DNA from: an uncultured Anaerolineales bacterium
Lineage (GTDB): Bacteria > Chloroflexota > Anaerolineae > Epilineales > JAANWY01
Length of the DNA stretch: 64,000 nt
NCBI GenBank assembly: GCA_964532665.1
Contig: CAZHMV010000007.1
Coordinates: 12,132-76,131 of the forward strand
Reading direction: 5' to 3'
This document shows, in pieces, positions 4,726-33,497 of this stretch. The translations under genes were made by a program, and so were the position numbers. The notes under the pieces were generated by a model. It was not told the origin of the DNA and searched no databases. It was given only the letters and a program-made list of their open reading frames with translations. Each line of letters opens with the position of its first letter. Positions within the stretch are counted from its first letter, which is position 1.

Positions 4726-4816
4726 GAGGATTGACGAAGGACGAATGACGAACGATCAGGGACCGGCATCAATCGTTGGACATCGGCTGTTCGTCGTTCG
4801 TCCCTTCGTGAACTTC
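4726..4816. repeat. Heptamer-built palindrome (GACGAAG GACGAAT GACGAAC ... GTTCGTC GTTCGTC CCTTCGT), approx 22-nt arms, 36-nt spacer
   Basis: Read directly: gacgaaggacgaatgacgaacga at 4728-4750 and its reverse complement cgttcgtcgttcgtcccttcgt at 4790-4812. Confidence 0.7.
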
Positions 4817-7486
4817 GTTCTTGCCGTGCTTGTCTTCCTGGTCTGGGCGGACCCCCTGGCAGCCGGCCACATAGCGCAGCTTCCTGCATCTCCCATCTAC
4901 CTGCCCCTGGTGGCGCGAAATGCGGATGCCCGGAAGCTGCCTCCGCCGCCGGATCTGGATCGGTATGGGGGCTACCGTCGGCTGCAAGGTGCCCAGACCG
5001 GCTACTTTCACACCGAACAGATGGGCGGCCGCTGGTGGTTGATCGATCCGTTGGGGCACGCTTTCTTCTCTCTGGGCGTCAACAACGTTGACTTCCAGCC
5101 CGATCCCCCCTTCTCGGCCTACCACGACAGCGCAGTGCGCAAGTATGGCGACGAGGCACACTGGGCAGAGGGAGTGGTGGCGCGCCTGCGAGGCTGGGGC
5201 TTCAACTCCATCGCTGCCTGGAGCAGCCCCTTGACCTATCACCAGGGAATGGCCTACACCATGAACCTGGAGATCACACCGGCCGCCATCGCTGGCGGCG
5301 TGCCGGCAGTTAGCCAGAATTTCGCCGACGTGTTCGATTCGCGATTCCCGGCCGTTGTGAGCGAGACAGTGGAGGCCGCAATTCCCGAAGGCACCGCCAA
5401 TGATCCCTGGCTCCTGGGCTATTTCCTCGATAACGAGCTGTACTGGTATCAGGGCGCAGATTTCAACTGGGACCCTGACGAGGTAGGGCCGACGGTCGTA
5501 GACGATTTCATCGCCCAGGGCTCCCATCAGGCCGGCAAGCACGCCTGGGTGGAGGGCTTCCTCGTGCCGCGCTATGCCTCTGTGGAGGCGCTCAACCTTG
5601 CGTGGGGGACCGCCTTCACCAGTTGGCTGGGCGATGAACCGTCCAGCGTCATCCATGCCACCGCCATTCCCAACGCCAACGACGTGATCCGGGCCGACAA
5701 GCAAGAGTTTCTGACCATTGTCGCTGACCGGTACTTTGCCGTTACCACCCAGGCCGTGCGCGCCCGCGATCCGCACCATCTGATCCTGGGGACGCGGTTC
5801 AACCGGGCCGTGCCGGCCGCCGTCGTGTCGTCTGCCGGCGAGTATTGTGATGTCCTGAGCTTTAATCTCTACCACGACGGACGACGCTACAAGAGTTCCG
5901 ACATCTGGGGCTTCGAGCATTTCGATAGCTACTACAATCTGGCAGAGAAGCCGCTTCTCATCAGCGAGTTCTCCTACCGGGCGCAGGATAGCGGGCTCCC
6001 CAATGCCCGGGGAGCCGTCGCCGGCGTTGCGACCCAGGAGGAGCGCGCTCAGGGGTACCGGTTCTACCTCCAGGCGATGGCGGAGAAGCGCTACGTCGTG
6101 GGAACGCACTGGTACAAGCACGCCGATGAGCCGGTGGCCGGCCGCTTCGATGGTGAGGATAGCAACTATGGCCTGGTGACGGTGCATGACGACCCGTACG
6201 GGCCGCTGGTGGAGGGGATCGCCCGTACCAATGGCAACATCTACGACCACCTTCTGGGTCAGCCGGCCAGGTTGCCGGAGCCCCCTCTTCCCCGCTGGCC
6301 GAAGCACGACGTGGTGTACGACACGCCGGCCGTCCCACCGACCTTTGTCTGGCAGCCGGTCGGCGGGGCGATAGGTTACACCCTTCAGGTCTCGCCCGAT
6401 CCGCTCTTCCCGCCTGAGGTGACGCTCACTTTCCCCCAAATCCCTGACCCGGTGCAGACTCTGCCCGACCCTCTGTCAGCAGGAAGATGGTACTGGCGGG
6501 TGGCAACGGCCGCAGCTTCCGGGACAATGAGTGACTTCTCCGCCCCCCGGCCGCTCTCCGTTCTACCCGTCTTTTCGACTCGCCTGATCAACGGTTTTGA
6601 GACGCCCATCGAGGCCGCCGTCGGGTCGGAGGAGAACGGCTGGCGCGGTCGCTGGGTCGCTTCACCGCCGGCCTCGGTGAGCATGGCGCGCTCCAGCCTG
6701 TACGCTACCGAGGGTTCCTTTTCTGGCCAGGCGCGCTACAACGGAGCTACAGCCGGCGCGTACCCATTCCAATTCGCCTCCCTCCTCCGCATTCCCGACG
6801 GGATCAACCTGGTCCCCCACGACTGGTCTTCCCACGAATACGTGGCCTTTGATGTTTACAACCCGCAGACCAGTCCGATCAACGGGGAACTGGGTGTCGC
6901 CAACGACGGCTACTCGCCCGTGAAGCTGTACCCATTCCGTGTGGATGGGGCCACGGAGGGGCATTTGATCTTCCGGCTTCGGGATGCAGCGGCCGCAGGG
7001 GTGGACCTGGCGGACGTCCAGCATGTTTGGATCGCCATCTTTCGCCCGGATGCCGGCCAGACGCTCTACTACGACAACTTTCACCTGATCGACCTCCCCG
7101 ACGACAACGATGTCCCGCCAGTCATTTCCTTGCTGGCAACGGATGCTCGGGTGGGGGGTACGATCAATCTGGACTGGACGGCCTACGACGCTGCCGGCCC
7201 GGGGGACGTGGGGGGCTATCGGGTCTACGTGTCCACGCTGCCATTCGTCAGCGTGGCGGAGATGGAGCCGGTTGCCACACTGGAAGCGGTGATCAAGCGG
7301 TATCCGGTCCAGATGTTGCGACCGCCCCAGGGCGAGGAGCGGGCGATCCCGCTGCAAGACGGCGTCCGCTACTACTTTGCTGTGACAGCGGTGGACGGAG
7401 CGGGGAATGAGAACCCTCTCGTGGTGGCCGTGCCGGCGGTGCCGACGGAAGAACACGGATTGCTCGGATGGGCGGATTGGGAGTGA
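4745..7486 (+). CDS. Secreted multidomain protein: putative TIM-barrel glycoside hydrolase-like N-terminal region plus two fibronectin type III-like domains
   Basis: 913 aa; hydrophobic leader VNFVLAVLVFLVWADPLAAG; C-terminal FN3-like segments (RWYWRVATAA...; GYRVYVSTLP...YYFAVTAVDGAGNE). Annotated ATG 4745 lies inside the palindromic repeat; true start may be GTG 4808. Confidence 0.55.
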   Translation: MTNDQGPASIVGHRLFVVRPFVNFVLAVLVFLVWADPLAAGHIAQLPASPIYLPLVARNADARKLPPPPDLDRYGGYRRLQGAQTGYFHTEQMGGRWWLIDPLGHAFFSLGVNNVDFQPDPPFSAYHDSAVRKYGDEAHWAEGVVARLRGWGFNSIAAWSSPLTYHQGMAYTMNLEITPAAIAGGVPAVSQNFADVFDSRFPAVVSETVEAAIPEGTANDPWLLGYFLDNELYWYQGADFNWDPDEVGPTVVDDFIAQGSHQAGKHAWVEGFLVPRYASVEALNLAWGTAFTSWLGDEPSSVIHATAIPNANDVIRADKQEFLTIVADRYFAVTTQAVRARDPHHLILGTRFNRAVPAAVVSSAGEYCDVLSFNLYHDGRRYKSSDIWGFEHFDSYYNLAEKPLLISEFSYRAQDSGLPNARGAVAGVATQEERAQGYRFYLQAMAEKRYVVGTHWYKHADEPVAGRFDGEDSNYGLVTVHDDPYGPLVEGIARTNGNIYDHLLGQPARLPEPPLPRWPKHDVVYDTPAVPPTFVWQPVGGAIGYTLQVSPDPLFPPEVTLTFPQIPDPVQTLPDPLSAGRWYWRVATAAASGTMSDFSAPRPLSVLPVFSTRLINGFETPIEAAVGSEENGWRGRWVASPPASVSMARSSLYATEGSFSGQARYNGATAGAYPFQFASLLRIPDGINLVPHDWSSHEYVAFDVYNPQTSPINGELGVANDGYSPVKLYPFRVDGATEGHLIFRLRDAAAAGVDLADVQHVWIAIFRPDAGQTLYYDNFHLIDLPDDNDVPPVISLLATDARVGGTINLDWTAYDAAGPGDVGGYRVYVSTLPFVSVAEMEPVATLEAVIKRYPVQMLRPPQGEERAIPLQDGVRYYFAVTAVDGAGNENPLVVAVPAVPTEEHGLLGWADWE

Positions 7487-7535: not shown

Positions 7536-9170
7536 TCATTCGCCTGGCCCGATCGACCTCATGACCGCCGGCAGGTAAAGCTGCACGCCGGGCGTTGTCG
7601 TCGCCGTGGGGGACGGCGAGACGGTGGCGGCAGGCGTGGCAGTCGGTGATTGGCCGGTAGCGGTTGGTGTGGGTGTCGCCGGCCCTGGCGGGGGACCTAA
7701 CTGGAGCCGGCCCCATCCATACTCATTGTCGGGGCCGGGTTGGCCCAGGTCAAGTGCGCGTGCTTTCAGAAAGGCCACGATCTCTTCGGGGGTGAAGGAC
7801 GGGAAGGCAGACTTGACCAGGGCGGCTGCGCCGGCCACGTGCGCTGCTGCTACGCCGGACCCGCAGGCACCCTTACCCCCCTCATCGCACGGCACACCGT
7901 CGCTCAGCCAATAGGTCACGGTACTGACACCATCGGGTGCTACCAGGTCTGGCCTGATACGCCCGTCATTCGTCGGTCCGCGAGAACTGAAAGCTTCCAA
8001 CTCGTCATCGCTCCAGTGGGTTGCCCCCACGACCAGCGCACCCTGGGCATCGGCGGGGGTCATGATGCTGCTGGTGATGACTTTGTGCTCCAGCTCAAAG
8101 CCAGGGTCCCAGCCCAGAAACAGCTCCACACGCGTCGATCGCGTCTCCTCCGGCGGCCGCGTGACGGCCACGTTGTACGTGCCGTCGTCCTGGACCGTCG
8201 CATCGATTTGCTCAACAGGATAATGGAAAGCCCCCGGAATCTGGCTGGAAATCCAATCCGGAGGCTCCTCCTCGAACGATAATGCCAGGTTGTAGTTAAT
8301 CTCGGCATTCTGGTCCCAACGATCATCCCATGTCAGCCCCACCGAGATGAGCTGATCTGCGATGACATTCGGGATGTCGTTCCAGTTGTCGCCAGGGGCA
8401 AAATCCAGGCAGCCGCCGCCGGACCCCGAGGGGTCCAATGCCGGCGGGCAGCCGTCCAGGTCCTGCCACTCGCCTTCCCAGTGACGTAGAGCTGCGTCGC
8501 CGGCGCCATTCACCCAGAGGATCCCGCTTCCCCTGGCCTGGTCGATCTTGGCTGTCAGGGGTCCCCGACCGTCTCCGCTGCTGCCCACCAACCAATTGCG
8601 GCCGTAGAGAATCACATCTACCTGCTGTTCCATCAGCCAATCCACCGCCCCTGTGAACTGATCCACTTCGCTGGGCAACGTGTTCACCAGGTAGAACTGA
8701 GCTTCCGGAGCCAGATCGAAGACAATTTCCGCCATGATGGTGCCATGATCGTCGCCGGCCCCGAACCCGCCCACCGTGCGGAACGTGTGCGTGATCACGC
8801 TGGCAGGGAGCTCCCCCTGTTGGATTCGCTCGTCGTAGCCCCGGAAACCCGCGTCCAGCACGGCGATTTTGACCCCCTGGCCACGCAGGCTGGCCTGCTG
8901 CCAGGCATCGGCCCCCATCTGCGAGACTCCCTCGCTGATGATCGCCAGCGGGGCGGCGGATGAGCGGCCCGCCGGCAACAGGAACCACATCGAGGAGAAT
9001 GCCCCCAGGGTGATGAGCAGGGCCAGGGCGGCCAGGGTGCGGGCGAACGCAGGCCAGCCCCGTACTGCGCGACGAACGATGATGGGCGAAGGAGGAAGGA
9101 CAAACCGTTGATCTCCGCCCTTCCTTTCTCGTTCTTCCTCCTGCCTCACGGGTCCGCGTTTGACAGTCAT
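7536..9170 (-). CDS. Subtilisin-like serine protease (peptidase S8) with N-terminal membrane anchor and C-terminal Pro/Thr-rich tail
   Basis: Asp (VKIAVLDAGF), His (DHGTIMAEIV) and Ser (GSGVAAAHVAGAAALV) catalytic blocks in subtilase order. Start chosen at ATG 9170 (MTVKRG..., GGGGGT upstream) so as not to overlap the DoxX gene; ORF track extends to 9446. Confidence 0.75.
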   Translation of the reverse strand: MTVKRGPVRQEEERERKGGDQRFVLPPSPIIVRRAVRGWPAFARTLAALALLITLGAFSSMWFLLPAGRSSAAPLAIISEGVSQMGADAWQQASLRGQGVKIAVLDAGFRGYDERIQQGELPASVITHTFRTVGGFGAGDDHGTIMAEIVFDLAPEAQFYLVNTLPSEVDQFTGAVDWLMEQQVDVILYGRNWLVGSSGDGRGPLTAKIDQARGSGILWVNGAGDAALRHWEGEWQDLDGCPPALDPSGSGGGCLDFAPGDNWNDIPNVIADQLISVGLTWDDRWDQNAEINYNLALSFEEEPPDWISSQIPGAFHYPVEQIDATVQDDGTYNVAVTRPPEETRSTRVELFLGWDPGFELEHKVITSSIMTPADAQGALVVGATHWSDDELEAFSSRGPTNDGRIRPDLVAPDGVSTVTYWLSDGVPCDEGGKGACGSGVAAAHVAGAAALVKSAFPSFTPEEIVAFLKARALDLGQPGPDNEYGWGRLQLGPPPGPATPTPTATGQSPTATPAATVSPSPTATTTPGVQLYLPAVMRSIGPGE

Positions 9171-9196
9171 TCTCAATACCCCCATTGCCTGATTCT

Positions 9197-9745
9197 TCAT
9201 GTCAGCCAGATCAGCAGGCCGGCTACGCGGCTGCCGTTGGCGGCTGTGCCGGCCAGCCGGCGCGCCAATCGGGTATCTAATCCCCAACACCGACCACTTC
9301 GCGTGATCCCAAGAAGCAGATGGAGGCCGATCAGCGCCGCGTAAAACCAGGCCTTCTCGCCAGGCACGTTCAGCACGCTCAGCGTGATGTTCACGGACAT
9401 ACCGGTCCCGATGGCGGTGCCCAGTCGCGTAAAGGCCCCCAGGCAAAGCGACAGGCCGATGATGAGCTCCGTAAACAGAACCAGGTAGCCGAATAACGTG
9501 AAGTTCGGGATGATCACCTTCTCAAGAAGGGCCTGATATCCCGCAAAGGTGGGGTGTTGAACACCCTGGCTGATCCAGTGCCACAAGCCGGTGTCGGTTG
9601 TCTGACCAAAGTCCGGCGGAACTTTCCACGAGGCAGCATACAGCCAGTACAGGCCATAGACCGCTCGCAACAGCCCGAGACCAAGGCAGCCTATTCCCTG
9701 GCCGATGATCCTATCCCGATACCCTGCCACGCGCTCCGAGATCAT
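9197..9745 (-). CDS. DoxX family membrane protein
   Basis: 182 aa, four predicted TM helices with DoxX-like pattern (…GLLRAVYGLYWLYAASWK…, …FGYLVLFTELIIGLSLCLG…). Confidence 0.65.
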   Translation of the reverse strand: MISERVAGYRDRIIGQGIGCLGLGLLRAVYGLYWLYAASWKVPPDFGQTTDTGLWHWISQGVQHPTFAGYQALLEKVIIPNFTLFGYLVLFTELIIGLSLCLGAFTRLGTAIGTGMSVNITLSVLNVPGEKAWFYAALIGLHLLLGITRSGRCWGLDTRLARRLAGTAANGSRVAGLLIWLT

Positions 9746-9751
9746 ATTCGC

Positions 9752-10717
9752 TTACCAGAGAGGAATCCTGGGCCTGGGGTACCGCTCGGCCAGCATTTGA
9801 TCCACGCCCAGGCAGCGGCCCGCCCCGCTGAAAACCAGGGCCAGGAGCACGCCCAGAATGACCAGGTAGGTCCACGGCCATTCCTTACCCAGGCTGGCCA
9901 GGAAAAGGTTGGCAATAAAAAAGGCGGCCACCAGGGCGCTGGCGCGGGTAAATATGCCGATCAAAAGGAAGAGCCCCATCACGATGGGCTCCACGATCAA
10001 CTGCACGGTGGCGAAGATTTGCCAGTGGGGGATGACGATGCTTTCCAGAAAAGCACGGTAGATGCCAACGGGATTGCCGGTTGCCCAGCCCTCCACAAAA
10101 GATTGGAAGCCCGGGCCGTAGAGTCCCTTGTGCAGGTTCTCAAAAGCTGTCGTGATAAACACCACCCCCAGCAACATCCGCAGCATAGCGAGATAGCCGG
10201 CTTCAGTATATGTGTGCCAGCTTTTCCTCAGAAACTCTTCAACAGAAGGCGTGGCAGACGATGTTGCCTTCGCATCCGTCACCTGGTCGGCTTCTGCCAG
10301 ACGCTGGCTGAGTGACTTGCTGATGTTGGCGTAGATCGGGGGATAGCTAACCAGCAGGTCATCGAAATCGGGCCTGTACAGCACCCAGGCGTCCACGTCC
10401 GTGTCGGCACGGGCCCAGGCATACTGCCGGCCATTGTCCAGGAGCGCCATCTCGCCAAAATGCTCACCCGGGCCCAGGACACCCAGGGTCGCGCGTTCCA
10501 GACCGATGTCGGAGCCAAGGTGAACCTGGCCGGCCTCAATCAGGTACATCACGTCTCCCAGGCTCCCCTCGGCGAAGATGAGGTCGCCTTCTGAGAAATG
10601 GCGAGGATACAGCTTCTCCGCTACGACTTCAAGGGCATCCTCAGAAAGGCTTTTCAGCATAGCCATCTTCCCGAGTTGATCCCGCGCGGGGTGTTGCCTC
10701 CTCGCTTGCTCTTCCAT
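9752..10717 (-). CDS. Cyclic-nucleotide-binding (CAP effector) domain fused to a C-terminal DoxX-like 4-TM domain
   Basis: N-terminal 'FAEGSLGDVMYLIEAGQVHL...GPGEHFGEMALLDNGRQYAWARA' (cNMP-binding fold), then TM domain resembling the neighbouring DoxX protein (…IVIPHWQIFATVQLIVEPIVMGLFLLIGIFTRASALVAAFFI…). Confidence 0.65.
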   Translation of the reverse strand: MEEQARRQHPARDQLGKMAMLKSLSEDALEVVAEKLYPRHFSEGDLIFAEGSLGDVMYLIEAGQVHLGSDIGLERATLGVLGPGEHFGEMALLDNGRQYAWARADTDVDAWVLYRPDFDDLLVSYPPIYANISKSLSQRLAEADQVTDAKATSSATPSVEEFLRKSWHTYTEAGYLAMLRMLLGVVFITTAFENLHKGLYGPGFQSFVEGWATGNPVGIYRAFLESIVIPHWQIFATVQLIVEPIVMGLFLLIGIFTRASALVAAFFIANLFLASLGKEWPWTYLVILGVLLALVFSGAGRCLGVDQMLAERYPRPRIPLW

Positions 10718-10937
10718 ACATCACCTCCTGGCCGATCGCTGTGCTCAATTCCTCTTCGAGAAGGGGCGCATTCAAGGGCGCCTGAGAAGATCCTGCCGGA
10801 AGACACTCAGGCGACACTCGCTACCTTCCTTGCCCAGTAGTGTAGTAGCGAAGCGTCGTTTGCGCTGTAAGAAAGGTTCCCCACGTCAGGCAAAGTATGG
10901 CAACTACGTTCTCAGCCGGCCCTGGTTCAACCAGGAA

Positions 10938-11169: not shown

Positions 11170-12660
11170 ATGATTGTCGTTGTTGCACTCTACGTCCTCT
11201 GTCTCGTTGGCCTTGCGGTTTATGGTCTTCACACCCTGTGGTTGGCCCTGGTTTACCTTCGATCAGCAGCCCTGCTGCCCGGTAATCTGCCGGAATCCGC
11301 CGCTGCGACGTCCTGGCCCCGCGTTACGGTGCAGTTGCCTATCTTCAACGAGCGCTACACTGTGGAGCGTCTGTTGGATGCTGTGGCGGCGTTGGATTAT
11401 CCGCGTGACCGCTTGCAGATCCAGGTGCTGGACGACTCCACCGATTCCACGACCGCGATAGCCAGCCGGCTCGTCGCCCGGTACCAGACTCAGGGGCTGG
11501 ATATTGACCTGCTCCACCGCACCAACCGCACCGGATTCAAGGCCGGGGCGCTGGCCGAGGGCCTCCAGACTGCCACGGGCGAGTTGATCGCCGTGTTCGA
11601 CGCTGACTTTGTGCCCTGTTCCGACTGGCTATATCGCACGGTTTCTGCGTTCCATGACCCCCGACTGGGTTGTCTCCAAACTCGCTGGGAGCATCTGAAT
11701 CGTGACTACAGCATCCTGACCCGGGCTCAGGCGTTGGGTGTCGATGGTCATTTCGTGGTCGAGCAAACGGCTCGCGCACGTACCGGCCTGTTCCTCAATT
11801 TCAATGGCACCGCCGGCCTGTGGCGCCGGGCGTGCATTGACGATGCCGGCGGCTGGCAGGGTGATACCCTGACGGAGGATCTCGATCTGAGCTATCGTGC
11901 CCAACTGCGCGGCTGGCGGGTGGGCTACCGGCCGGACGTGGTGGTGCCAGCGGAGTTGCCAGCCCAACTGGATGCGTTTAAGCGCCAGCAGTTTCGTTGG
12001 GCCAAGGGCAGTCTGCAGACCGCCCGCAAGCTGGCGTCCAGCGTCTGGCAGGCTGACACCCCATGGCGCACACGGCTGGCCGGGCTCATGCACCTCACTG
12101 GCTATGTTGTCCATCCCCTGATGTTGCTGACGCTGTTACTGTCTCTGCCCATTGGCTATTGGGCCGGGCCGATGTTGCGCATTTTCCCCTGGTTCACTCT
12201 GGCAGCCGTCGGCCCGCCCTTGTTGTATAGCCTGGCTCGCACATCTCATACGCCGCATCTGCGTGATCGGCTGCGTGTCTTGCCGTTGTTGACCTTGCTG
12301 GGCTTTGGTATTTCGCTCAACAACAGTGTGGCGGCCGTGGAGGCATTGACTGGACGCGGCAGCGCCTTCCGGCGCACCCCCAAGTTCAACTTGCGCGACC
12401 AGCAGGGTAGTTGGGCAGACAGCGTCTATGCTTTGCCACGCAATCCGGTCGTCTGGGGGGAGTTGGTGCTGGCCGGCTATGCTCTGTTCACCACCTCGGT
12501 GCTCTGGTCCCGACACGGCTGGGCCGTCGTGCCGTGGATGTCGATCTACGCGGCGGGCTATCTTTTCGTGGCCGGCCTGAGCTTTGCGCAGAGCTGGCAG
12601 CGCCGGCGTGCCCTGGCGTGCCTGTCCAGGCCGGCGGATATCTCGAAAGCGGCAGGGTAA
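11170..12660 (+). CDS. Processive family-2 glycosyltransferase (CESA/CslA-like, D,D,D,QxxRW)
   Basis: 496 aa; 'QVLDDSTDST', 'VFDADFVP', 'TEDLDLSYRAQLRGWR', 'QQFRWAKG' (QxxRW) and multiple C-terminal TM helices, the beta-glycan synthase architecture. Confidence 0.8.
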   Translation: MIVVVALYVLCLVGLAVYGLHTLWLALVYLRSAALLPGNLPESAAATSWPRVTVQLPIFNERYTVERLLDAVAALDYPRDRLQIQVLDDSTDSTTAIASRLVARYQTQGLDIDLLHRTNRTGFKAGALAEGLQTATGELIAVFDADFVPCSDWLYRTVSAFHDPRLGCLQTRWEHLNRDYSILTRAQALGVDGHFVVEQTARARTGLFLNFNGTAGLWRRACIDDAGGWQGDTLTEDLDLSYRAQLRGWRVGYRPDVVVPAELPAQLDAFKRQQFRWAKGSLQTARKLASSVWQADTPWRTRLAGLMHLTGYVVHPLMLLTLLLSLPIGYWAGPMLRIFPWFTLAAVGPPLLYSLARTSHTPHLRDRLRVLPLLTLLGFGISLNNSVAAVEALTGRGSAFRRTPKFNLRDQQGSWADSVYALPRNPVVWGELVLAGYALFTTSVLWSRHGWAVVPWMSIYAAGYLFVAGLSFAQSWQRRRALACLSRPADISKAAG

Positions 12661-12703: not shown

Positions 12704-14047
12704 CTACTTGCTCCCCTGAGTTCCCCCGAGTCCCCCCTTGATTCCCGGTTCCCGCCCGTACAGCCCAACAGCGACAACCAGCGCCCCGAACAGCGGCAGG
12801 TACTCGGTGCGGCGAATCCATTCGTACTCGCGGGGGTTGGCGGGGTCCAGGTAGAACAGGTAGGAGAGGTTGACCGCGGCCGCAAAGTAGAGCCAGCCGG
12901 CAGCGAACGTTAGCGCAGCCCGGCTCTGCCGAAGCGGGAGCAGGGGCAGCAGCGCGATGAGCCAGGTCAGGTACCAGGGAAACATGGCCGGCGTCAGCAG
13001 TAGATAGACGCTGAGCAGCAGCACCGCCCGGCCGATAACTGCCTGCTCCCCCGCTTCCGACCGCAGGAGCATTGCCAGACCAAGCATGAGGAGGGTGAGC
13101 AGAACGACCACCTTGGCTGCCTGCAAGGGATCGTTCACACGGGCATCCAGCGCGCGCACAAGCCAGAAAAACAAGCCGTCGTTCGTTTTCCACTGTGTGG
13201 CGTAGACGCGCAACGCCCCGAAGATGCCTGTCCCCTGTGCTCCTCTGCCAAGCCCCAGGCCGGCCCTCAGAAACGGCACAAAAGCCAGGCCAACCAGCCC
13301 ACCATACAGCAGCGTGCGCTTTACGCCCCACCACCGCACGAAAACCGGCAGCAGCAGGGCCGGCACGAATTTCGTCAACGTCGCCAGAGCCAGAGCAACA
13401 GCGCTGCGCGTGCGGTGGCCGGCGATGAGCCAGTAGATGGCCAGCATTCCCCACAGGGTCATCAGCGAATCCACGTGGGCGCTGTGGGCGAACTCGACGA
13501 CGATGAGGGGGTTCCAGGCGTAGATGAGCACCCGTTCTTCGGGGATGCGCAGCCGGCGCAGGAGCCGCACGAGGACGACAGCCGTGGCCAGATCGAACAG
13601 GGTGAAGGCGATTTGCATGGCCGTGGGGTTTTCCGGTGCCAGGCGGTAGATAGTGGCGAAAGTCAGCTCAGCCGCCGGCGGGTAGGGAGTGGCCATCCAT
13701 GCATGATCGACCCGTGCTCGAAGCGGCGTCGCCAGGCTGTCCAGGGCCGGCGCATCCACCCGGTGCGCGTAGGGATTGACGGCGTGGTTGATGAGCCGGC
13801 CATCCCACAGGTAGCGCCAGATGTCGGTGGAGAGCGTCGGCGTGGTGAACCACAGGGGGATGCGGAACAGAACCGCGAAGACGGCGATGGTGATGAGCCG
13901 TGAGGCGCTCGGTGAGGCGGGCCGGCGCAGAATTAGGGCTGTCGCCGCCAGGTAGCAGGCGAAGGCAATGAAGAAGAGTGCCAGGAAAGTGTGGCCCTGG
14001 CGGGTGAAGTGGGTCAGGCGAGTCATGCCGGCGAAGCAGGCCAGCAT
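12704..14047 (-). CDS. Integral-membrane GT-C glycosyltransferase (DUF2029 / GT87-like mannosyltransferase family), start uncertain
   Basis: Multi-TM protein with periplasmic loop 'DIWRYLWDGRLINHAVNPY' and PMT/GT87-like topology. ORF track extends to 14179 through a pyrimidine tract (no stops possible); ATG 14047 (MLACFAGMTRL) preferred. Confidence 0.5.
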   Translation of the reverse strand: MLACFAGMTRLTHFTRQGHTFLALFFIAFACYLAATALILRRPASPSASRLITIAVFAVLFRIPLWFTTPTLSTDIWRYLWDGRLINHAVNPYAHRVDAPALDSLATPLRARVDHAWMATPYPPAAELTFATIYRLAPENPTAMQIAFTLFDLATAVVLVRLLRRLRIPEERVLIYAWNPLIVVEFAHSAHVDSLMTLWGMLAIYWLIAGHRTRSAVALALATLTKFVPALLLPVFVRWWGVKRTLLYGGLVGLAFVPFLRAGLGLGRGAQGTGIFGALRVYATQWKTNDGLFFWLVRALDARVNDPLQAAKVVVLLTLLMLGLAMLLRSEAGEQAVIGRAVLLLSVYLLLTPAMFPWYLTWLIALLPLLPLRQSRAALTFAAGWLYFAAAVNLSYLFYLDPANPREYEWIRRTEYLPLFGALVVAVGLYGREPGIKGGLGGTQGSK

Positions 14048-14050
14048 GGC

Positions 14051-14157
14051 GAGGCCGAGGAGGAGGAAGGGGGAGGATGGAGAATGGAAAATGGAGGATG
14101 GAAGGGGGAAGGAGGAAAGGGGAAAAAGGGAAAAAGGGAAATGGGAGGCGGAATTCG
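14051..14157 (+). repeat. Approx 105-nt polypurine (G/A-only) tract containing GGGGAAAAAGGGAAAAAGGGAAATGGGAGGCGG
   Basis: Read directly; almost no C/T for over 100 nt. Shares the GGGAAAAAGGG / GGGAAAnGAGGCGG motif with tracts at 37866-37908 and 63941-63992. Confidence 0.8.
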
Positions 14158-14361
14158 TTGTGCCTGTTCCCATTTGCATTCCTGTGCAGCGCCGAAGTGT
14201 CAGTTCTCGGGATTCGACGCAGCGCCCGGTGTCGTGTGTGGCCCACGGGCCGCCATCTCTCGCAACGCCTCCATCACCCGGGCGGGGCCGGCGATTTCAG
14301 CGAAAGTTGCCATCGAATGACTCCTTTCCTTTCCCCATGAATGAATTCATGGTCTGATACC

Positions 14362-18857: not shown

Positions 18858-21335
18858 TCATATCTCACGCCCATTGGAGAAATCCGGCTGGCCCAACTGG
18901 TCAAAGGCCAGCGGGAAGTAATCCGAATGATCCAGTTGTGCGGCGATATCTTTCATGCGTTGCAAGTTCAGGTCAGCTTGTTGCGTGTCCTGCAGTTCCT
19001 GGGTGCGATAGATACCCTCACGCCATGCCAGGACCCGGAAGCGCTCCTCCAACAACGCCTGCCGATCCGCCTCGCTGTCGGCACCGCGATCGAGCCGGTC
19101 CAGCACCTCAAGTGCCTGATCATAGTAGTGCAACGCGGTTTCGCCTGCCAACGATTCGCGAGCCCTATGACCAGCTTGCTGCAAATACGTGAGTGCCTTG
19201 TCCCATACTCGTGCCGCCACATAGTGGTATGCCAGAGCTTCAACCACCTGGCCGGTCCCCTGACGGTAGCGATTCTCGATTGCCTCAGCGACCTGTCGAT
19301 GAATGACCTGCCGGCGCTGCGGGCTCAAGTCCTGGTAAATCGCCTGGCGAATCTTGTCGTGGGCAAACTCGAAGGTTCTTGATCCTGAGGAGTCGGCCTG
19401 GTGTTCGGTTACCGACCGACGAACGCCGCGTATCCCCTGCCAGGGAACGAGCCTGACCAGCCGGCGCTCCACCCAGATGTCGCTGCTGGCGTCTACCACG
19501 GCTCTATGTTCGGCGGCGGCATCCTGCAGCAATTCGGCATCGAATTGGGGACCGATCACCGCCGCCAGGGTCAGCAGGCGTCGCGCTGACGTGGGGAGCT
19601 GACTCACGCGCCGCATGATCAAGTCATGCAGATTCTCAGATGTGGGTGTGGCGAGCGTGGGCAGCGGGCCGGCAAGGGTCCATCGGTCTGCGTCAGAGGC
19701 CACCAGAATCCCCCGGTCGTACAGGAAGTTGACAAGCTCGACGATGGTCAGCGGCAGGCCGGCGCTTTCAAGATCCAGGAATCGCGCCAGGTTGCCAGCC
19801 TGCTCGTCACTTACGACTGCCGCTGCAACCTGCTGGATGTCGAGTGAGCTGAGCCGGTCCAGGGCCACACAATCGACCCACTGATGACGACTGAGCTGGC
19901 AGCGCAAAGGCAGCAGAGGATGCTCCGGGGCCAGTTCCCCAGGCTGAAACGCGGCAACAATCCAGATGGGGATACTGTTCAGCCGGCGAACCAGGTATTG
20001 CAGCAGATCAAGGCTGAAACGACTGGCCCAGTGCAGATCGTCCAGAAACAGGATGACCGAATTGACGGACTCGTCTGCACAATATGCCTGAGCCAGTTTT
20101 CTCAGGAACTGGGCAACAGCCTCGAAGAGCAGGTGATGGGCTCTGTTGTCTGAAAAGGGGGCCAGTTTGGGCAGATCTGGGCACGACGCGCGCAACTCGG
20201 GGACAAGCCGTGCCAGTTCGGCGAGCTCCTGGGACGACATGCCGGCCAATGCCTCTTGCACAGGACATGCTCGTTCTGTAATGGCCGCCCGCAGCGCGTC
20301 GGAAATGGGCTGAAAGCCGACCCTCGGGACTCGTTCGTAGCAGCGGCCGGATAGCACAAGTGTCGGTGACTCGGCGGCAATCTGTCGGATGAAGAGCTCA
20401 ATCAGGGAGGTCTTTCCAACACCGGCTTCACCTTCCACCAGGGTCAGACGGCCCCCTCCGTGTCGGGTCGCTTCCCAACTGCGGCGCAGACGCGCAGATG
20501 CTGCCTCCCGGCCAATGAAGGGAAAACGTGGGCCAGGCAGTGTGCTTTCTCCCTCCACAAACCTCGATGGCCATTTATCAGCCACAATAGCATGGTACAA
20601 AGCTGTGGTTTCCTCCAGCGGTTCCACACCCAGCTCGGTGTAGAGCAAGGCCCGGCAGTCTTCATACTGAGCCAGGGCGCGACTGCGCCGGCCCGAGAGG
20701 GCATACAGGCGAATCAGGTTGCGGTGTGCCTCTTCGAAGAGCGGGTCGATTTCCAGCAGCCGGCGACCGTACCGGATACCCTGGCGGTAGGCCCCGCTGG
20801 CAAGATAGTAATCCACCAACCTTCGTAGTGCCTGAATCGCCATCTCGCGGAGCCGTTCCTGTTCGTAGAGCAGCCAATGTTCAAAGTCTGGACTTCCCGT
20901 GATGAAGAAGCCGGCCATGAAATCACCCCGATACAGATCGCTGGCCTCGGCCAGGTGTTGGGGGGCGATCCCACCCTCGGCCAGTGTGCTCCGGCGTATG
21001 GCATCTTCGAAAGCCTTGACGTCGAGCCAGTAGTCGGTCTCGGGATTGAACTGCACATTCTGGTGGGTAGTCAAGATAGCTGGCGACCCCGTGTTGCTGT
21101 GGGGGAGCGTGGTTCGCAGATTGTATACTGCCTGCCGCAGATTGCGCCGCGCGGTGTCGTCGTCTCTATCCGGCCACAGAAGGCCGGCCAGGCGGTCGCG
21201 ACTTTGGTGGCTGACCTGATGAAGCAAGAGATAGGCCAGCAGCGCTCGCACCTTCTGCGATTCAAAGCCGCGGACCATCTGGTCGCCATGCCAGACCTCA
21301 AATCCGCCTAAGAGACGAATTTCTAACCTGCTCAA
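18858..21335 (-). CDS. SARP/AfsR-family regulator: OmpR-type wHTH + BTAD, NB-ARC/AAA P-loop NTPase, TPR repeats (STAND architecture); TTG start
   Basis: 825 aa; N-terminal 'LEIRLLGGFEVWHGDQ...VRALLAYLLLH' (SARP wHTH/BTAD), 'LTLVEGEAGVGKTSLIELF' Walker A, C-terminal TPR-like helices. TTG at 21335 preceded by GGAGAGGAG. Confidence 0.75.
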   Translation of the reverse strand: MSRLEIRLLGGFEVWHGDQMVRGFESQKVRALLAYLLLHQVSHQSRDRLAGLLWPDRDDDTARRNLRQAVYNLRTTLPHSNTGSPAILTTHQNVQFNPETDYWLDVKAFEDAIRRSTLAEGGIAPQHLAEASDLYRGDFMAGFFITGSPDFEHWLLYEQERLREMAIQALRRLVDYYLASGAYRQGIRYGRRLLEIDPLFEEAHRNLIRLYALSGRRSRALAQYEDCRALLYTELGVEPLEETTALYHAIVADKWPSRFVEGESTLPGPRFPFIGREAASARLRRSWEATRHGGGRLTLVEGEAGVGKTSLIELFIRQIAAESPTLVLSGRCYERVPRVGFQPISDALRAAITERACPVQEALAGMSSQELAELARLVPELRASCPDLPKLAPFSDNRAHHLLFEAVAQFLRKLAQAYCADESVNSVILFLDDLHWASRFSLDLLQYLVRRLNSIPIWIVAAFQPGELAPEHPLLPLRCQLSRHQWVDCVALDRLSSLDIQQVAAAVVSDEQAGNLARFLDLESAGLPLTIVELVNFLYDRGILVASDADRWTLAGPLPTLATPTSENLHDLIMRRVSQLPTSARRLLTLAAVIGPQFDAELLQDAAAEHRAVVDASSDIWVERRLVRLVPWQGIRGVRRSVTEHQADSSGSRTFEFAHDKIRQAIYQDLSPQRRQVIHRQVAEAIENRYRQGTGQVVEALAYHYVAARVWDKALTYLQQAGHRARESLAGETALHYYDQALEVLDRLDRGADSEADRQALLEERFRVLAWREGIYRTQELQDTQQADLNLQRMKDIAAQLDHSDYFPLAFDQLGQPDFSNGREI

Positions 21336-30935: not shown

Positions 30936-33497
30936 TTGAGCTTTACCGAGTCAGACGTCATGCCTGATTCAGCATCACCTGTTGACAACCATTTGGAAAA
31001 GCGGACTCGCGAACTCGAAGCCCTCAACGCTGTCGCAATGGCTGTGGGCCATTCTTTGGAACTGGACACGGTTATTCGCGAGGCCGTCGATCAGGTGTTG
31101 GCTGTAACTGGCGCTGACGGCTGTGCGGTGTATCTGCGGGAACCCCGATCAGGCGACCTGGTTCTTGCGACCGTAAAAGGCGTCTCCGACGACTTCGCTC
31201 AACATCCGGACATCAACCGCATTCCAGCCGGTGTCGGCTGGTGGGGCCAGATGGCCCGTCACGGCCGGCTGATCATTCTGGAAGACATCGGCGCGCTACG
31301 TCGTCCATCCCGTGAGGCGGTGATCGAAGAAGGGCTGCAATCCGCTGCCTACGTACCGCTGAAATCCAGAGAGCGGTTGAGTGGTGCGATCGTGATCGCC
31401 AGCCGGCGCCCCCGTAAGTTCTGTACCGTGGATCTGGAATTCCTGGCGGCCATTGGCGAACAGATTGGCGTGGCCGTGGAGAACGCACGTCTATACACTG
31501 CGGAACGAATGCGCGTGCGCCAGTTGGCACTCATCAACGAGGTAGCCCGGCGCATTGCAGACACGCTGGACGTGGATGCTGTTCTGGAGCGCGTTGTCAC
31601 GTCTCTTCAGGCGGACTTCGGCTACCAGGACGTGGCGACGTTGTTGCTGGATGTAACCGGCGAGGTGTTGGAACTGAAGGCCGTTGCCGGCGTATTCTGT
31701 AACATGAGCCCTGGGGAATACCGCCAGCCGGTCTCTGAAGGCATCATCGGGCGCTGTGCGCGCACTGGCCAGGTCGCCCTGTCTAATGATGTCACTCAGG
31801 ACCCTGACTACTTTCACGCGGTGAGCGGAGAGCCCCGTGGTTCGGAGTTATCTGCGCCGATCAAGGCGGCCGGCCGCGTGATGGGTGTGCTCGACGTCCA
31901 GAGTGATCGTACCAATGCCTTTGATGAGAACGATGTGGTTGTGATCCAGACACTGGCTGACCAACTGGGGGTTGCTCTGCAGAATGCGCATCTCTTCCGC
32001 CAGCAGGAACAGCAACTGACAAAGCTCCATACGTTGGACGAGATCGCCCGGACCGTCAGCAGCAGCCTCGATCTGGATGAGGCCCTTGATCGGATCCTGG
32101 TCGAGTTGAAACGCGTGGTTACGTACGATAGCGCTGCGGTGTGGCTGGTGGATGGGGATCGTCTCCAGGCACTCGCGGCGCGCAAGCACGGCACCCCTGC
32201 ACCCGACATGGAAGTCACCCTGCCCGTCAACGACCCGTTGTTTCAGGAGGGGCAGCGAACTGGCCAACCTGTGGTTCTGGTGGACGCCAGGGCAGACCCA
32301 CGATTCAAGGGCGTTGGGGGTACCGGTGATGTGGGCGGCTGGGTGCTTGCTCCCCTGATTGTTCGGGATCGGGTCATCGGATGCCTGACAGTGGACAGCC
32401 GCGAGGTCGGAGCCTACGACGCAGAGGATGCTCAGACCATCATGACCTTTGCGCAACATGCTGCCATCGTCCTGGAAAACGCACAGTTGTATGCGCGGAC
32501 GAAGCACCAGTTGGAAGCTCTGGCAGCGATCCACGAAATCTCCATAGATTTGCTGGGTCGGCGCAGGATTGAGGATGTGTTGGAAGACATCGTTCGCCGG
32601 GCGTCTGATCTAATTGGTGCTTCTGGTGCCGGAATCTACCTGTACGATCCGGTGACAAAGCAGCTTACCCTCACCGTCGCAGTGGGGCTGGCTGAAGGTT
32701 TCGTGGGCCCAGTCCACCTGGCGCTAGGTGAGGGACTCGCCGGCCGCGTCGTCCAGACGGGCGAACCGATTTGGGTTGATGACTACGCCGCGTGGGAAGG
32801 CCGATCTGCTCAGTACGCTGACGTACCCTTTCGGGCCTCCATCTCAGTGCCCCTGAAGTATGAGGGGCGGGTTCTGGGGGCGCTGTCCATGTCTGAAGGC
32901 AAGTCGGGGCGTACATTTAGTGAAGCGGATGCATGGCTCCTGACTTTGCTTGCCGGGCAGGCGGCCGTGGCGCTGGAGAATGCGCGGCTGTACGAGGAGC
33001 TTGAGAGATTGGCGACCCATGATGGTCTAACCGGCTTGTACAATCATCGCCACTTTCATGAGTTGTTGGAACGGGAGGTTGAGCGTGCTCAGCGCTATGG
33101 CCATCGATTGGCGCTGCTGATCATCGATGTGGATGGTTTCAAGGGCTACAATGATCGACATGGGCATGTAGCCGGTGATGAGGCCTTGCAAGGTATTGCA
33201 CAGCTTCTGAGACAGGGATGTCGGCGAGGGGACCTCATCGCGCGTTATGGCGGTGAGGAGTTTGCGATTATTTTGCCGGAGACACCTACTGAGGAGGCGG
33301 CGCGAGTTGCCGAGCGCATCCGTCGGATTGTGGAAAACCGCACGCGGAACGTGCCCTTTCTCTCGCCGTTGACCGTGAGTATCGGTGTAGCAGGCTACCT
33401 GGATCGTACCAGCAGTGCAGCGGAACTCCTGATTGCCGCCGACGGTATGATGTATCGGGCCAAGGCTCGGGGCAAGAACCAGGTGGTGAGAACCTAA
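30936..33497 (+). CDS. Multi-GAF-domain diguanylate cyclase (GGDEF)
   Basis: 853 aa; four GAF-like segments, then 'GLYNHRHF...RYGGEEFAIIL' GGDEF active site with RxxD-like I-site context. Confidence 0.85.
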   Translation: MSFTESDVMPDSASPVDNHLEKRTRELEALNAVAMAVGHSLELDTVIREAVDQVLAVTGADGCAVYLREPRSGDLVLATVKGVSDDFAQHPDINRIPAGVGWWGQMARHGRLIILEDIGALRRPSREAVIEEGLQSAAYVPLKSRERLSGAIVIASRRPRKFCTVDLEFLAAIGEQIGVAVENARLYTAERMRVRQLALINEVARRIADTLDVDAVLERVVTSLQADFGYQDVATLLLDVTGEVLELKAVAGVFCNMSPGEYRQPVSEGIIGRCARTGQVALSNDVTQDPDYFHAVSGEPRGSELSAPIKAAGRVMGVLDVQSDRTNAFDENDVVVIQTLADQLGVALQNAHLFRQQEQQLTKLHTLDEIARTVSSSLDLDEALDRILVELKRVVTYDSAAVWLVDGDRLQALAARKHGTPAPDMEVTLPVNDPLFQEGQRTGQPVVLVDARADPRFKGVGGTGDVGGWVLAPLIVRDRVIGCLTVDSREVGAYDAEDAQTIMTFAQHAAIVLENAQLYARTKHQLEALAAIHEISIDLLGRRRIEDVLEDIVRRASDLIGASGAGIYLYDPVTKQLTLTVAVGLAEGFVGPVHLALGEGLAGRVVQTGEPIWVDDYAAWEGRSAQYADVPFRASISVPLKYEGRVLGALSMSEGKSGRTFSEADAWLLTLLAGQAAVALENARLYEELERLATHDGLTGLYNHRHFHELLEREVERAQRYGHRLALLIIDVDGFKGYNDRHGHVAGDEALQGIAQLLRQGCRRGDLIARYGGEEFAIILPETPTEEAARVAERIRRIVENRTRNVPFLSPLTVSIGVAGYLDRTSSAAELLIAADGMMYRAKARGKNQVVRT

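Follow-up and report, generated by a model that had tools for sequence, protein, structure and literature searches.

Four-helix membrane proteins of the DoxD/DoxX type (PF04173/PF07681) are very common across the bacteria, have animal representatives as well (TMEM35A/NACHO), and are largely undefined in their biochemistry. One example is DoxD of the Acidianus thiosulfate:quinone oxidoreductase (TQO). Of the other members, MexG binds the quinolone PQS (PMC5477026), and the DoxX protein of Mycobacterium tuberculosis is found in a membrane thiol oxidoreductase complex with the rhodanese SseA and with SodA, according to the account of Nambi et al. (2015) given in PMC7907618. Cyclic-nucleotide-binding (CNB) domains are better understood. 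Kannan et al. defined the canonical phosphate-binding cassette, in which Arg209 contacts the phosphate, and families whose cassettes depart from this motif (CooA, CprK, FNR/FixK and PDZ-GEF) bind other ligands or none (PMC2246266). The locus described here, which lies in a 64,000-nucleotide stretch of contig CAZHMV010000007.1 from an uncultured Anaerolineales bacterium (the window), joins the two kinds of domain in one polypeptide, the 321-residue CNB-DoxX fusion protein (DoxX-A). The fusion gene is followed by genes for a 182-residue stand-alone DoxX paralogue (DoxX-B) and for a 554-residue protein of the S8 (subtilase) family.

The explanation favoured here, tentatively, is that DoxX-A and DoxX-B form a heteromeric membrane core carrying an accessory cytoplasmic head, that this head probably has a ligand other than a cyclic nucleotide bound in the canonical way, and that the S8-like protein is an extracytoplasmic pseudo-subtilase partner. 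The locus would thus be a co-transcribed, translationally coupled envelope operon of three genes that is confined to a small clade of uncultured Anaerolineae, and its core would be a heteromer of two four-helix membrane proteins.

In the open reading frame (ORF) listing the three genes lie head to tail on the minus strand, with the fusion gene at 9752-10717 (321 codons plus stop, a continuous ORF), DoxX-B at 9197-9745 and the S8-like gene at 7536-9200. The TAA stop codon of the fusion is separated from the ATG of DoxX-B by only 6 nucleotides, in the same reading frame, and the TGA stop codon of DoxX-B overlaps the ATG of the S8-like gene at 9200, creating the arrangement ATGA. (The mechanical ORF of the S8-like gene extends over 7536-9446, but the ATG at 9200 is the real start, which ends the overlap with its neighbour.) This combination of a short in-frame gap and an ATGA overlap is suggestive of a typical operon with translational coupling. 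A Shine-Dalgarno sequence, AGGAGG (10724-10729, minus strand), is positioned 6 nucleotides upstream of the fusion ATG at 10717. At this end of the gene (10660-10717, minus strand) the public JGI gene call for the fusion (P0001) differs, being only 302 residues long and beginning at Met20; the Met1 start is preferred because the orthologues align at their N-termini and because of the Shine-Dalgarno sequence.

The two halves of the fusion protein are each assigned above the family cut-offs by Pfam. Residues 39-124 match cNMP_binding (E=3.9e-18, 65.6 bits against a cut-off of 27.5) and residues 175-312 match DoxD (E=2.2e-9, 37.9 against 22.7 bits), with a further match to DoxX (E=1.6e-6, 29.0 against 23.6 bits). 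Assignment of the C-terminal half to a different family was considered and ruled out, since HTTM gave only a weak match from within the same clan. A profile search against the PDB matched residues 3-154 to the CNB domains of PKG, PKA, CRP and SthK, and hydropathy and an AlphaFold2 (AF2) model of the C-terminal part agree with a four-helix membrane domain. These assignments uphold the architecture that a first-pass annotation of the window had proposed from the letters alone, a CNB fold followed by a four-helix membrane domain. The CNB domain proper occupies 10346-10603 (minus strand) for the Pfam match, extending with its flanking helices to approximately residues 12-145, and the DoxD/DoxX membrane domain (residues 159-321) occupies 9755-10243 (minus strand). 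Between them, from the C-helix of the CNB domain to the helix preceding the first transmembrane (TM) segment, lies a variable linker (residues 146-158; 10244-10282, minus strand) that corresponds to poorly conserved alignment columns.

Such a junction might be taken for an assembly error or for a frameshift that merged a CRP-like gene with a DoxX gene, the latter a possibility that the first-pass annotation had itself named as one of the points on which its proposal could fail. This candidate is ruled out: the ORF is continuous, the linker is in frame in all aligned orthologues despite its variable sequence, and there are many such orthologues. In a word-indexed search, 13 further clusters cover the fusion protein at 64-80% identity with lengths of 304-339 residues; nine of them are 320-321 residues long, one is short at the N-terminus (P0006, 95% coverage), and two are longer there (P0010 and P0012). 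They derive from Anaerolineae or Chloroflexi metagenome-assembled genomes (MAGs) or metagenomes, with NCBI MAGs and ENA, JGI and Logan assemblies among the sources, and extra copies of the fusion are found at two of the loci compared below (L001 and L021). Nothing was found in favour of an artefact, as the shorter start of the JGI gene call touches the N-terminus alone. With copies from different samples and assemblers and a Shine-Dalgarno sequence ahead of the ATG, an artefactual origin is next to inconceivable.

The distribution of the fusion is narrow, which answers the question of its phylogenetic spread that the earlier reading had raised. A HMMER profile search of 1.84 billion representatives at 50% identity returned the fusion as one full-length cluster among the best 150 matches, which are otherwise filled by multi-CNB proteins, such that independent fusions scoring below ~130 bits would lie outside them. 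When one genome per GTDB species was considered, the fusion was present in 5 Anaerolineae/Anaerolineales MAGs, one of which may hold a second copy, and the same scan gave one DoxX-only relative in a Bathyarchaeota MAG. Similarly, among the best 120 DoxD-like clusters of a search with the DoxD profile, PF00027 occurs in the fusion family only. Public annotations of these proteins give generic names, and no paper on a fusion of DoxX with a CNB domain was found in full-text literature searches, in keeping with the earlier impression that the arrangement is new. Known families are here combined in a new way: the literature searched has no description of this combination, of the remodelled cassette or of a pseudo-subtilase linked to them.

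The membrane domain is the better conserved part of the protein (73-87% identity between orthologues, against 57-77% for the CNB domain). An AF2 model of residues 150-321, built from an alignment of 108 sequences, has a mean predicted local distance difference test score (pLDDT) of 92.5 and a predicted template-modelling score of 0.83. It contains an amphipathic pre-TM helix continuous with TM1 (159-196, with TM1 at 174-196), two loop helices (202-212 and 218-228), TM2 (232-253), TM3 (257-275), TM4 (282-296) and a C-terminal helix (305-312), and the hydropathy peaks agree with the four TM helices. R180 in TM1, E243 in TM2, G248 and G254 are invariant in the 108 DoxD-like sequences and are kept in DoxX-B, and the fusion carries the residues that are invariant in the subfamily, namely the Arg in TM1, the Glu in TM2 and the GR..G.D tail. 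No signal peptide precedes the CNB domain, and the TM2-TM3 loop and the C-terminal tail are rich in clustered Arg residues, so the protein is predicted to adopt an N-in/C-in topology, with the conserved loops 197-231 and 276-281 outside the cytoplasm.

DoxX-B was called a paralogue by the first-pass annotation, and this identification is borne out. Its Pfam scores are above the cut-offs for both DoxD (27.2 against 22.7 bits) and DoxX (27.0 against 23.6 bits), BLASTP aligns it to the fusion with 35% identity over 95 residues (E=7e-12), and the two membrane domains can be aligned over their whole length, with the family-invariant residues present in both. Both proteins have the intramembrane Arg and Glu, in TM1 and TM2 respectively, together with strongly conserved loops that are predicted to be extracytoplasmic.

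As to the activity of this putative core, the first-pass annotation set out from the view that DoxX proteins are as a rule membrane subunits of thiol/quinone oxidoreductase complexes, which generalises from very few characterised members and finds little echo at this locus. The NCBIfam model TQO_large_DoxD gave 30.1 and 28.2 bits against a cut-off of 300, no DoxA is found among the neighbouring genes or elsewhere among the 39 window proteins that were scanned, and the same scan gave no rhodanese and no superoxide dismutase. In the mycobacterial DoxX-SseA-SodA complex, clustering of the genes is not known to be a defining feature. The family alignments of both DoxX-A and DoxX-B hold no conserved Cys in the TM domains.

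One alternative is that the DoxX pair is itself without chemistry and serves as a membrane chaperone or docking platform, in the manner of NACHO/TMEM35A with pentameric receptors, which would insert, hold or position the membrane-anchored pseudo-subtilase at the surface of the cell, with the heads acting as cytoplasmic adaptors for its tuning or localisation. The high conservation of the extracytoplasmic loops of DoxX-A and the lack of a conserved Cys would fit such a role, as would the apparent translational coupling of DoxX-B to the S8-like gene and the fact that, at most loci, the pair is succeeded by an S8-like gene even where the CNB domain is missing. Structure also offers a hint. The membrane domain matched no chain among PDB sequences, even with a profile of the DoxD-like family, and a Foldseek search of the C-domain model against the PDB gave no significant match (E >0.8), but only two superpositions had a low root-mean-square deviation (rmsd), those with the vitamin-K-dependent carboxylase (9l20_A) and with NACHO/TMEM35A (9h9e_B); for both, the rmsd is <5 Å and the TM-score 0.47-0.57, at E >3. 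For NACHO itself the TM-score is 0.47 on the query and 0.57 on the target, at an rmsd of 4.7. With a TMEM35A sequence, DoxX_2 was matched below its threshold only, and this link is treated as weak; literature searches found no paper linking DoxX to NACHO. On the other side, the Foldseek E-values are not significant, the pair is found without an S8-like gene in two loci (L005 and L006), and the broader DoxD-like family, which has the same intramembrane Arg and Glu, consists mostly of single genes without an S8 neighbour, as in the Bathyarchaeota MAG (L016). A platform of this kind is accordingly regarded as an unlikely account of the locus as a whole. For the core of the favoured heteromer, the evidence, which is thin, makes a quinone-type lipid ligand or a redox function a little more likely than anchoring alone, on the basis of the intramembrane Arg and Glu, the binding of quinolone by MexG, the mycobacterial complex and the carboxylase as a structural neighbour, whereas an assembly or anchoring role would rest on the NACHO neighbour, the coupling to a membrane-anchored client and the lack of a conserved TM-domain Cys.

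The CNB head departs from the canonical motif in its phosphate-binding cassette. A canonical cassette reads FGE[LIV]AL..x[PV]R[ST]A, in which R209 of PKA and R82 of CAP exemplify the Arg that binds the phosphate. The corresponding segment of the fusion, FGEMALLDNGRQYAWARA (residues 87-104; 10406-10459, minus strand), reads F87-G-E-M-A-L-L-D-N-G-R97-Q98-Y99-A100-W101-A-R-A and does not conform, as judged from the family alignments and from a HMMER alignment to PfPKG. In the latter, which uses the PfPKG segment FGEAALIHNTQRSATIMA, Q98 falls on the phosphate-binding Arg, Y99 falls on the Ser/Thr and R97 lies one position earlier; P0016 aligns to the cassette as PfPKG does. The family as a whole has the pattern FGE-x-AL-x-x-x-R-[Q/H]-Y-A-W, in which the FGE glutamate (E89) is retained, the position of the canonical Arg is Gln98 in the fusion and His in 3 of the 13 aligned members, and R97, Y99, A100, W101 and R103 are invariant. 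Such invariance suggests that a ligand pocket is maintained by selection, while canonical binding of cAMP or cGMP appears unlikely.

The full-length AF2 model, which was built from a multiple sequence alignment of 13 sequences and has a pLDDT of 60, places strands at 37-114 and helices at 115-145, with the barrel mostly at a pLDDT of 66-84, the cassette loop (92-97) below 50 and residues 146-174 also below 50; this confidence was too low for fold searching, and the C-domain model from 108 sequences was used instead. Residues 146-158 are probably a flexible linker, as judged from the model. The head might then act on the DoxX core through its C-helix, the flexible linker of ~13 residues and the pre-TM1 helix, serving as an accessory regulatory head for another small ligand or for a cyclic nucleotide bound in an unusual way.

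The closest relatives of the CNB head are membrane proteins with four CNB domains, which score ~100 bits per domain and have the canonical cassette FGEMALLTGNPRSATAQA (PRSAT). A motif in the helix following the barrel, LWVLYKxDFDDLLxxYPxIxxxLSKxLSQRLAE, is common to these multi-CNB relatives and the fusion. Because the closest relatives are canonical, the change in the cassette is best read as derived and fixed; the domain would have come from multi-CNB membrane proteins of Chloroflexi, with its cassette then remodelled under purifying selection. In three large proteins of this group (P0121, P0123 and P0165), 2-4 CNB domains in tandem are combined with a single TM segment and, beyond a linker rich in Pro and Thr, with a C-terminal domain that is extracytoplasmic and uncharacterised; the first CNB repeat of these proteins likewise has a degenerate cassette.

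These findings bear on the proposal with which the first-pass annotation had begun, when taken in its fullest form: the locus would encode a DoxX redox module gated by cAMP or cGMP, in which the CNB domain switches a quinone/thiol oxidoreductase formed with the paralogue, beside an active secreted protease. The strength of the cNMP_binding match, the fact that the best PDB matches (PKG, PKA, CRP and SthK) are true binders of cyclic nucleotides, the retained FGE glutamate, an invariant Arg adjoining the canonical position and the membership of the membrane domain in DoxD/DoxX all speak for it. Nonetheless, the canonical Arg is replaced by Gln or His and the Ser/Thr by Tyr in all members while the relatives keep PRSAT, and cassettes like this one mark CNB families with other ligands (PMC2246266), so that the description "cyclic-nucleotide-gated" is doubtful. 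The scan of the 39 window proteins gave no adenylate or guanylate cyclase, the TQO score is 30 against 300 bits in a locus where no DoxA was seen, the supposed protease has no nucleophile and the head is dispensable in sister lineages. Taken together, gating by a cyclic nucleotide in this form appears unlikely, though the broader idea of the annotation, a membrane module for redox or anchoring that responds to some signal, may hold. Two better-known architectures are also a poor description of the protein. No HTH_Crp_2 or Crp Pfam match is found in the fusion, and NCBIfam CRP models give at most 29 bits against cut-offs of at least 266, over the CNB part only, which argues against CRP/FNR membership; and in comparisons with CNG, HCN, MloK1 and SthK channels only the CNB part aligns (to SthK/HCN), the membrane part of the fusion being a C-terminal DoxD/DoxX domain.

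In the case of the S8-like gene, the earlier description as an S8 protease stands as to the family but not as to the activity. Its product matches Pfam Peptidase_S8 (E=1.1e-24, 87.7 against 21.8 bits) and can be aligned in both of its halves to subtilisin BPN'. Where subtilisin has its nucleophile, Ser221, however, the protein has Gly449 (codon 7854-7856, minus strand), reading G-S-G-V-A-A-A-H-V-A-G where subtilisin reads G-T-S-M-A-x-P-H-V-A-G; in the same alignments D116 and H152 are retained and D235 occupies the position of the oxyanion Asn. A census of 120 homologues separates this lineage from its relatives: ACG[ST]G is found in 8/8 S8-like orthologue clusters and in 7/7 full-length locus copies, for instance at L001 4255-5856, L002 8544-10097, L003 4595-6217 and L018 2770-4308, all with Gly for Ser, whereas GTS is found in 101/101 readable motifs of the next 111 relatives (35-45% identity). 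The Asn-to-Asp change alone is not diagnostic, because five GTS-bearing relatives also carry it.

A propeptide is absent from the protein, in which the TM anchor (approximately residues 51-74) is followed directly by the mature start AAPLAIISEGV, whereas relatives at 38-45% identity have ~120 extra N-terminal residues before the equivalent SEGV. Four Cys residues are invariant (251, 264, 438 and 446), and the C-terminus consists of a Pro/Thr-rich linker and a LYLPAVMRS tail (orthologue motif [LVH][YF]LPxxx[RKT]). The product is thus a membrane-anchored, lineage-specific pseudoprotease, and a subtilase homologue that is anchored and has neither nucleophile nor propeptide would serve not as an enzyme but as a binding or structural partner of the DoxX core, or as its client. 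A related motif, [ILV]YLP[LA][IV]x[RKN], is present both at the extreme C-terminus of the S8-like protein (7557-7580, minus strand) and in a 913-residue neighbour, after its N-terminal TM segment (4895-4918, plus strand), and the [ILV]YLP motif is also seen at the C-termini of the related Chloroflexi subtilases P0385, P0388 and P0397; possibly it marks proteins of this lineage for sorting or anchoring.

The S8 fold is conserved though catalytically dead, and its cleft residues D116 and H152 are kept in most orthologues (H152 is Ser in L003). This raises another possibility, namely that signalling runs from outside to inside, with the pseudo-subtilase as the receptor of a peptide or some other ligand, the DoxX pair transmitting the signal and the CNB-like domain as an output or interaction domain rather than a sensor. 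The degenerate cassette would fit a ligand-free interaction domain, and a response regulator gene is nearby in several loci. This regulator, however, stands apart from the operon and lacks a consistent position beside it, signal transduction is not a known function of four-helix DoxX proteins, a flexible linker would hardly allow rigid coupling, and there are lineages with the S8-like gene but no head; signalling in this direction is therefore quite improbable.

The variation among related loci, of which 22 were compared using tblastn and gene tables, indicates which parts of the locus belong together. The recurrent order is MetRS, an MptA_B-type GT-C glycosyltransferase and a divergent glycosyltransferase of family 2 (GT2), then DoxX-A, DoxX-B, the S8-like gene and the convergent 913-residue protein. 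DoxX-B adjoins DoxX-A in every locus that extends far enough, and in L001 (889-5856) the pair is duplicated in tandem as A-B-A-B, followed by a single S8-like gene, although the flanks there differ and include type III CRISPR-Cas genes (Cas6 and RAMP). The pair, always adjacent and duplicated together, behaves as a unit, and DoxX-A/DoxX-B appears to be the unit under selection. The single Bathyarchaeota gene (L016) has no partner and no S8 neighbour, and was set aside as uninformative on the module.

The CNB head, in contrast, comes and goes. In L018/L022 and L019/L020, DoxX-A is 164-169 residues long and has no CNB domain, its TM domain being 82-84% identical; it starts only 146 bp from the start of the GT2 gene and is followed by DoxX-B, and by the S8-like gene as well in L018/L022. 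DoxX-B of L006 (4705-6330) and L007 (5403-7028) is a 541-residue protein fused to a C-terminal ADP-ribosylglycohydrolase (ADP_ribosyl_GH, E=2e-35 in L006), whereas DoxX-A at these loci has lost the CNB barrel and has an N-terminal extension of ~60 residues with a remnant of the CNB C-helix (SQDLAKMDRDV against SQRLAEADQV); no S8-like gene is found in L006/L007. The C-helix remnant survives in P0014/P0015. In a neighbour-joining tree of the TM domain the CNB-less forms of L018/L019 nest inside the CNB clade, which tentatively suggests one gain and at least one loss of the head. The head is thus optional and dispensable, apparently a recent and lineage-specific acquisition, and the ADP-ribosylhydrolase on DoxX-B would be an analogous head. 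For the earlier proposal of a module built from the CNB protein and its paralogue, the operon-like association of the genes is upheld, but the CNB head is not integral to it, as the CNB-less L018/L022 and L019 and the rearranged L006 illustrate.

Several observations weigh against the favoured heteromer with its accessory head and pseudo-subtilase partner. Neither partner is strictly required, because DoxX-B is cut down in L003 (4264-4548) and L004 (2224-2508), two independent assemblies of one lineage, to its C-terminal 94 residues, such that a full-length partner is not always retained, and because the S8-like gene is absent in L005, where the pair stands without it, and in L006. Adjacency may in part mirror common descent, since all loci fall in one narrow clade with conserved MetRS, MptA_B and GT2 synteny. 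The DoxX-A tree carries no bootstrap support, and the history read from it is correspondingly tentative; the Foldseek matches of the C-domain, all at E >0.8, lend the structural comparison weak support. Finally, the invariant Arg at cassette position -1 could still bind a cyclic phosphate.

A bolder version of the favoured explanation would see in the locus a modular envelope device, in which an eight-helix DoxX heteromer couples an extracytoplasmic dead subtilase, as receptor or client, to interchangeable cytoplasmic heads: a CNB-like domain whose pocket has been re-engineered for something other than a cyclic nucleotide, an ADP-ribosylglycohydrolase, or none. This is quite improbable, but if true it would define what the DoxX fold does, namely coupling or assembly across the membrane under regulation. 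DoxX pairs with a CNB-like head, with an ADP-ribosylhydrolase or with no head offer in any case a natural comparison that would show the regulated face of the core, here the cytoplasmic side with the N-terminus of DoxX-A and the C-terminus of DoxX-B, and hence an entry point to its ligand and partners. The remodelled and strictly conserved cassette would likewise represent a CNB domain that was retargeted shortly after its acquisition. The practical impact is limited, as the system is confined to a handful of uncultured Anaerolineae and has no phenotype or activity attached to it.

The genes flanking the operon are in part conserved with it. The divergent GT2 gene (11170-12660, plus strand) encodes a membrane glycosyltransferase of 496 residues (Glyco_tranf_2_3/Glyco_transf_21-like), supported by Pfam, and its synteny with the DoxX pair holds in L001-L004, L006-L012, L014-L015 and L018-L022; it is taken as a conserved neighbour and not counted as part of the module. 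Beyond it lies the gene for a 491-residue protein (12704-14179, minus strand) whose orthologues are called MptA_B-family GT-C, a neighbour of both GT2 and the DoxX pair, and a link of the pair to the synthesis of envelope glycan or glycolipid is possible on these grounds. On the other side, the 913-residue protein (4745-7486, plus strand) has an N-terminal TM segment and no Pfam match; it is ~74% identical, and convergent to the S8-like gene, in L002, L013, L017 and L021. Upstream of the fusion gene, a conserved element (10839-10880, minus strand) reads GGAACC-n-T-n-CTTACAG, ~21 nucleotides and TAnnnT. This element, GGAACCnTnCTTACAG ... TAnnnT, corresponds to invariant columns in an alignment of 7 orthologous loci and is partly present in the CNB-less L018, while the 5' leader between it and the start codon differs in length by ~66 nucleotides among loci. 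It is promoter-like in its conservation and position, although a simple scan for sigma-70 promoters and terminators gave no convincing minus-strand sites, and none at 10839-10880, and an Rfam scan of the whole window matched no riboswitch or other RNA family. The G+C content is ~60% throughout the window, and chromosomal housekeeping genes are present, including those for MetRS, RecG, RecJ, TatC and Fmt. Other signalling genes in the window encode an 853-residue protein with four GAF domains and a GGDEF domain (30936-33497, plus strand) and an 825-residue regulator with Trans_reg_C, BTAD and AAA domains (18858-21335, minus strand); the genes that were scanned include no class III nucleotide cyclase.

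Set beside the described members of the DoxD/DoxX family (DoxD, M. tuberculosis DoxX, MexG and the DoxX of bufferin clusters), DoxX-A and DoxX-B have the same four-helix domain with its intramembrane Arg and Glu, but differ in occurring as an A/B paralogue pair, in the CNB-like head, in having no DoxA, rhodanese or superoxide dismutase partner in view, and in TQO scores far below the cut-off. The known members have quinone or quinolone ligands or belong to membrane redox complexes (PMC5477026; and, for the complexes, the account in PMC7907618). NACHO/TMEM35A and the membrane domain of the gamma-carboxylase have DoxX/HTTM-type folds, HTTM also being a weak Pfam match of the fusion, whereas they are eukaryotic, have other partners and functions, and are not matched at the sequence level in the PDB.

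The S8-like protein finds a parallel in CspC of Clostridioides difficile, an S8 pseudoprotease that is a germinant receptor. Both have an S8 fold in which the catalytic Ser is replaced, and the S8-like protein is presumably a binding or regulatory protein too. There is no specific sequence relationship between the two (CspC_non_triad, 14.9 bits against a cut-off of 675); unlike CspC, the S8-like protein has an N-terminal anchor, no propeptide, a large Cys-containing insertion and a Pro/Thr-rich tail, and it sits in a Chloroflexi S8 subfamily whose other members are GTS-active.

For the CNB head, one set of parallels consists of CooA, CprK, FNR/FixK, PDZ-GEF and the CNB homology domain of KCNH channels, in which, as in the fusion, the phosphate-binding Arg of the barrel has been replaced; families of this sort respond to heme, to aromatic acids or to other ligands, or have none (PMC2246266). 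The head differs from this group in being nearest to canonical multi-CNB proteins, in keeping the FGE motif and a shifted Arg, and in having a DoxX domain as its partner, not a helix-turn-helix, GEF or channel domain. A second set, MloK1/SthK and the CNB-MscS and CNB-MFS proteins, likewise combines CNB and membrane domains in one polypeptide; the SthK CNB domain matches the fusion at E ~1e-13, and CNB-MscS and CNB-MFS proteins are among the weaker matches (P0017 and P0069). Compared with MloK1/SthK, the order is reversed in the fusion, with the CNB domain at the N-terminus, the membrane part is a four-helix DoxX domain without a pore or transporter signature, the connection is predicted to be a flexible linker in place of a rigid C-linker, and the cassette is non-canonical. 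The closest relatives of the head are the multi-CNB proteins of Chloroflexi, for example P0121 and P0123, in which four CNB domains and a TM segment are joined by a Pro/Thr-rich linker to a C-terminal domain; they differ from the fusion in their canonical PRSAT cassettes, in having no DoxX domain and in their different ectodomains. Since they are the closest relatives and have the post-barrel helix motif in common with the fusion, the head was probably acquired from them.

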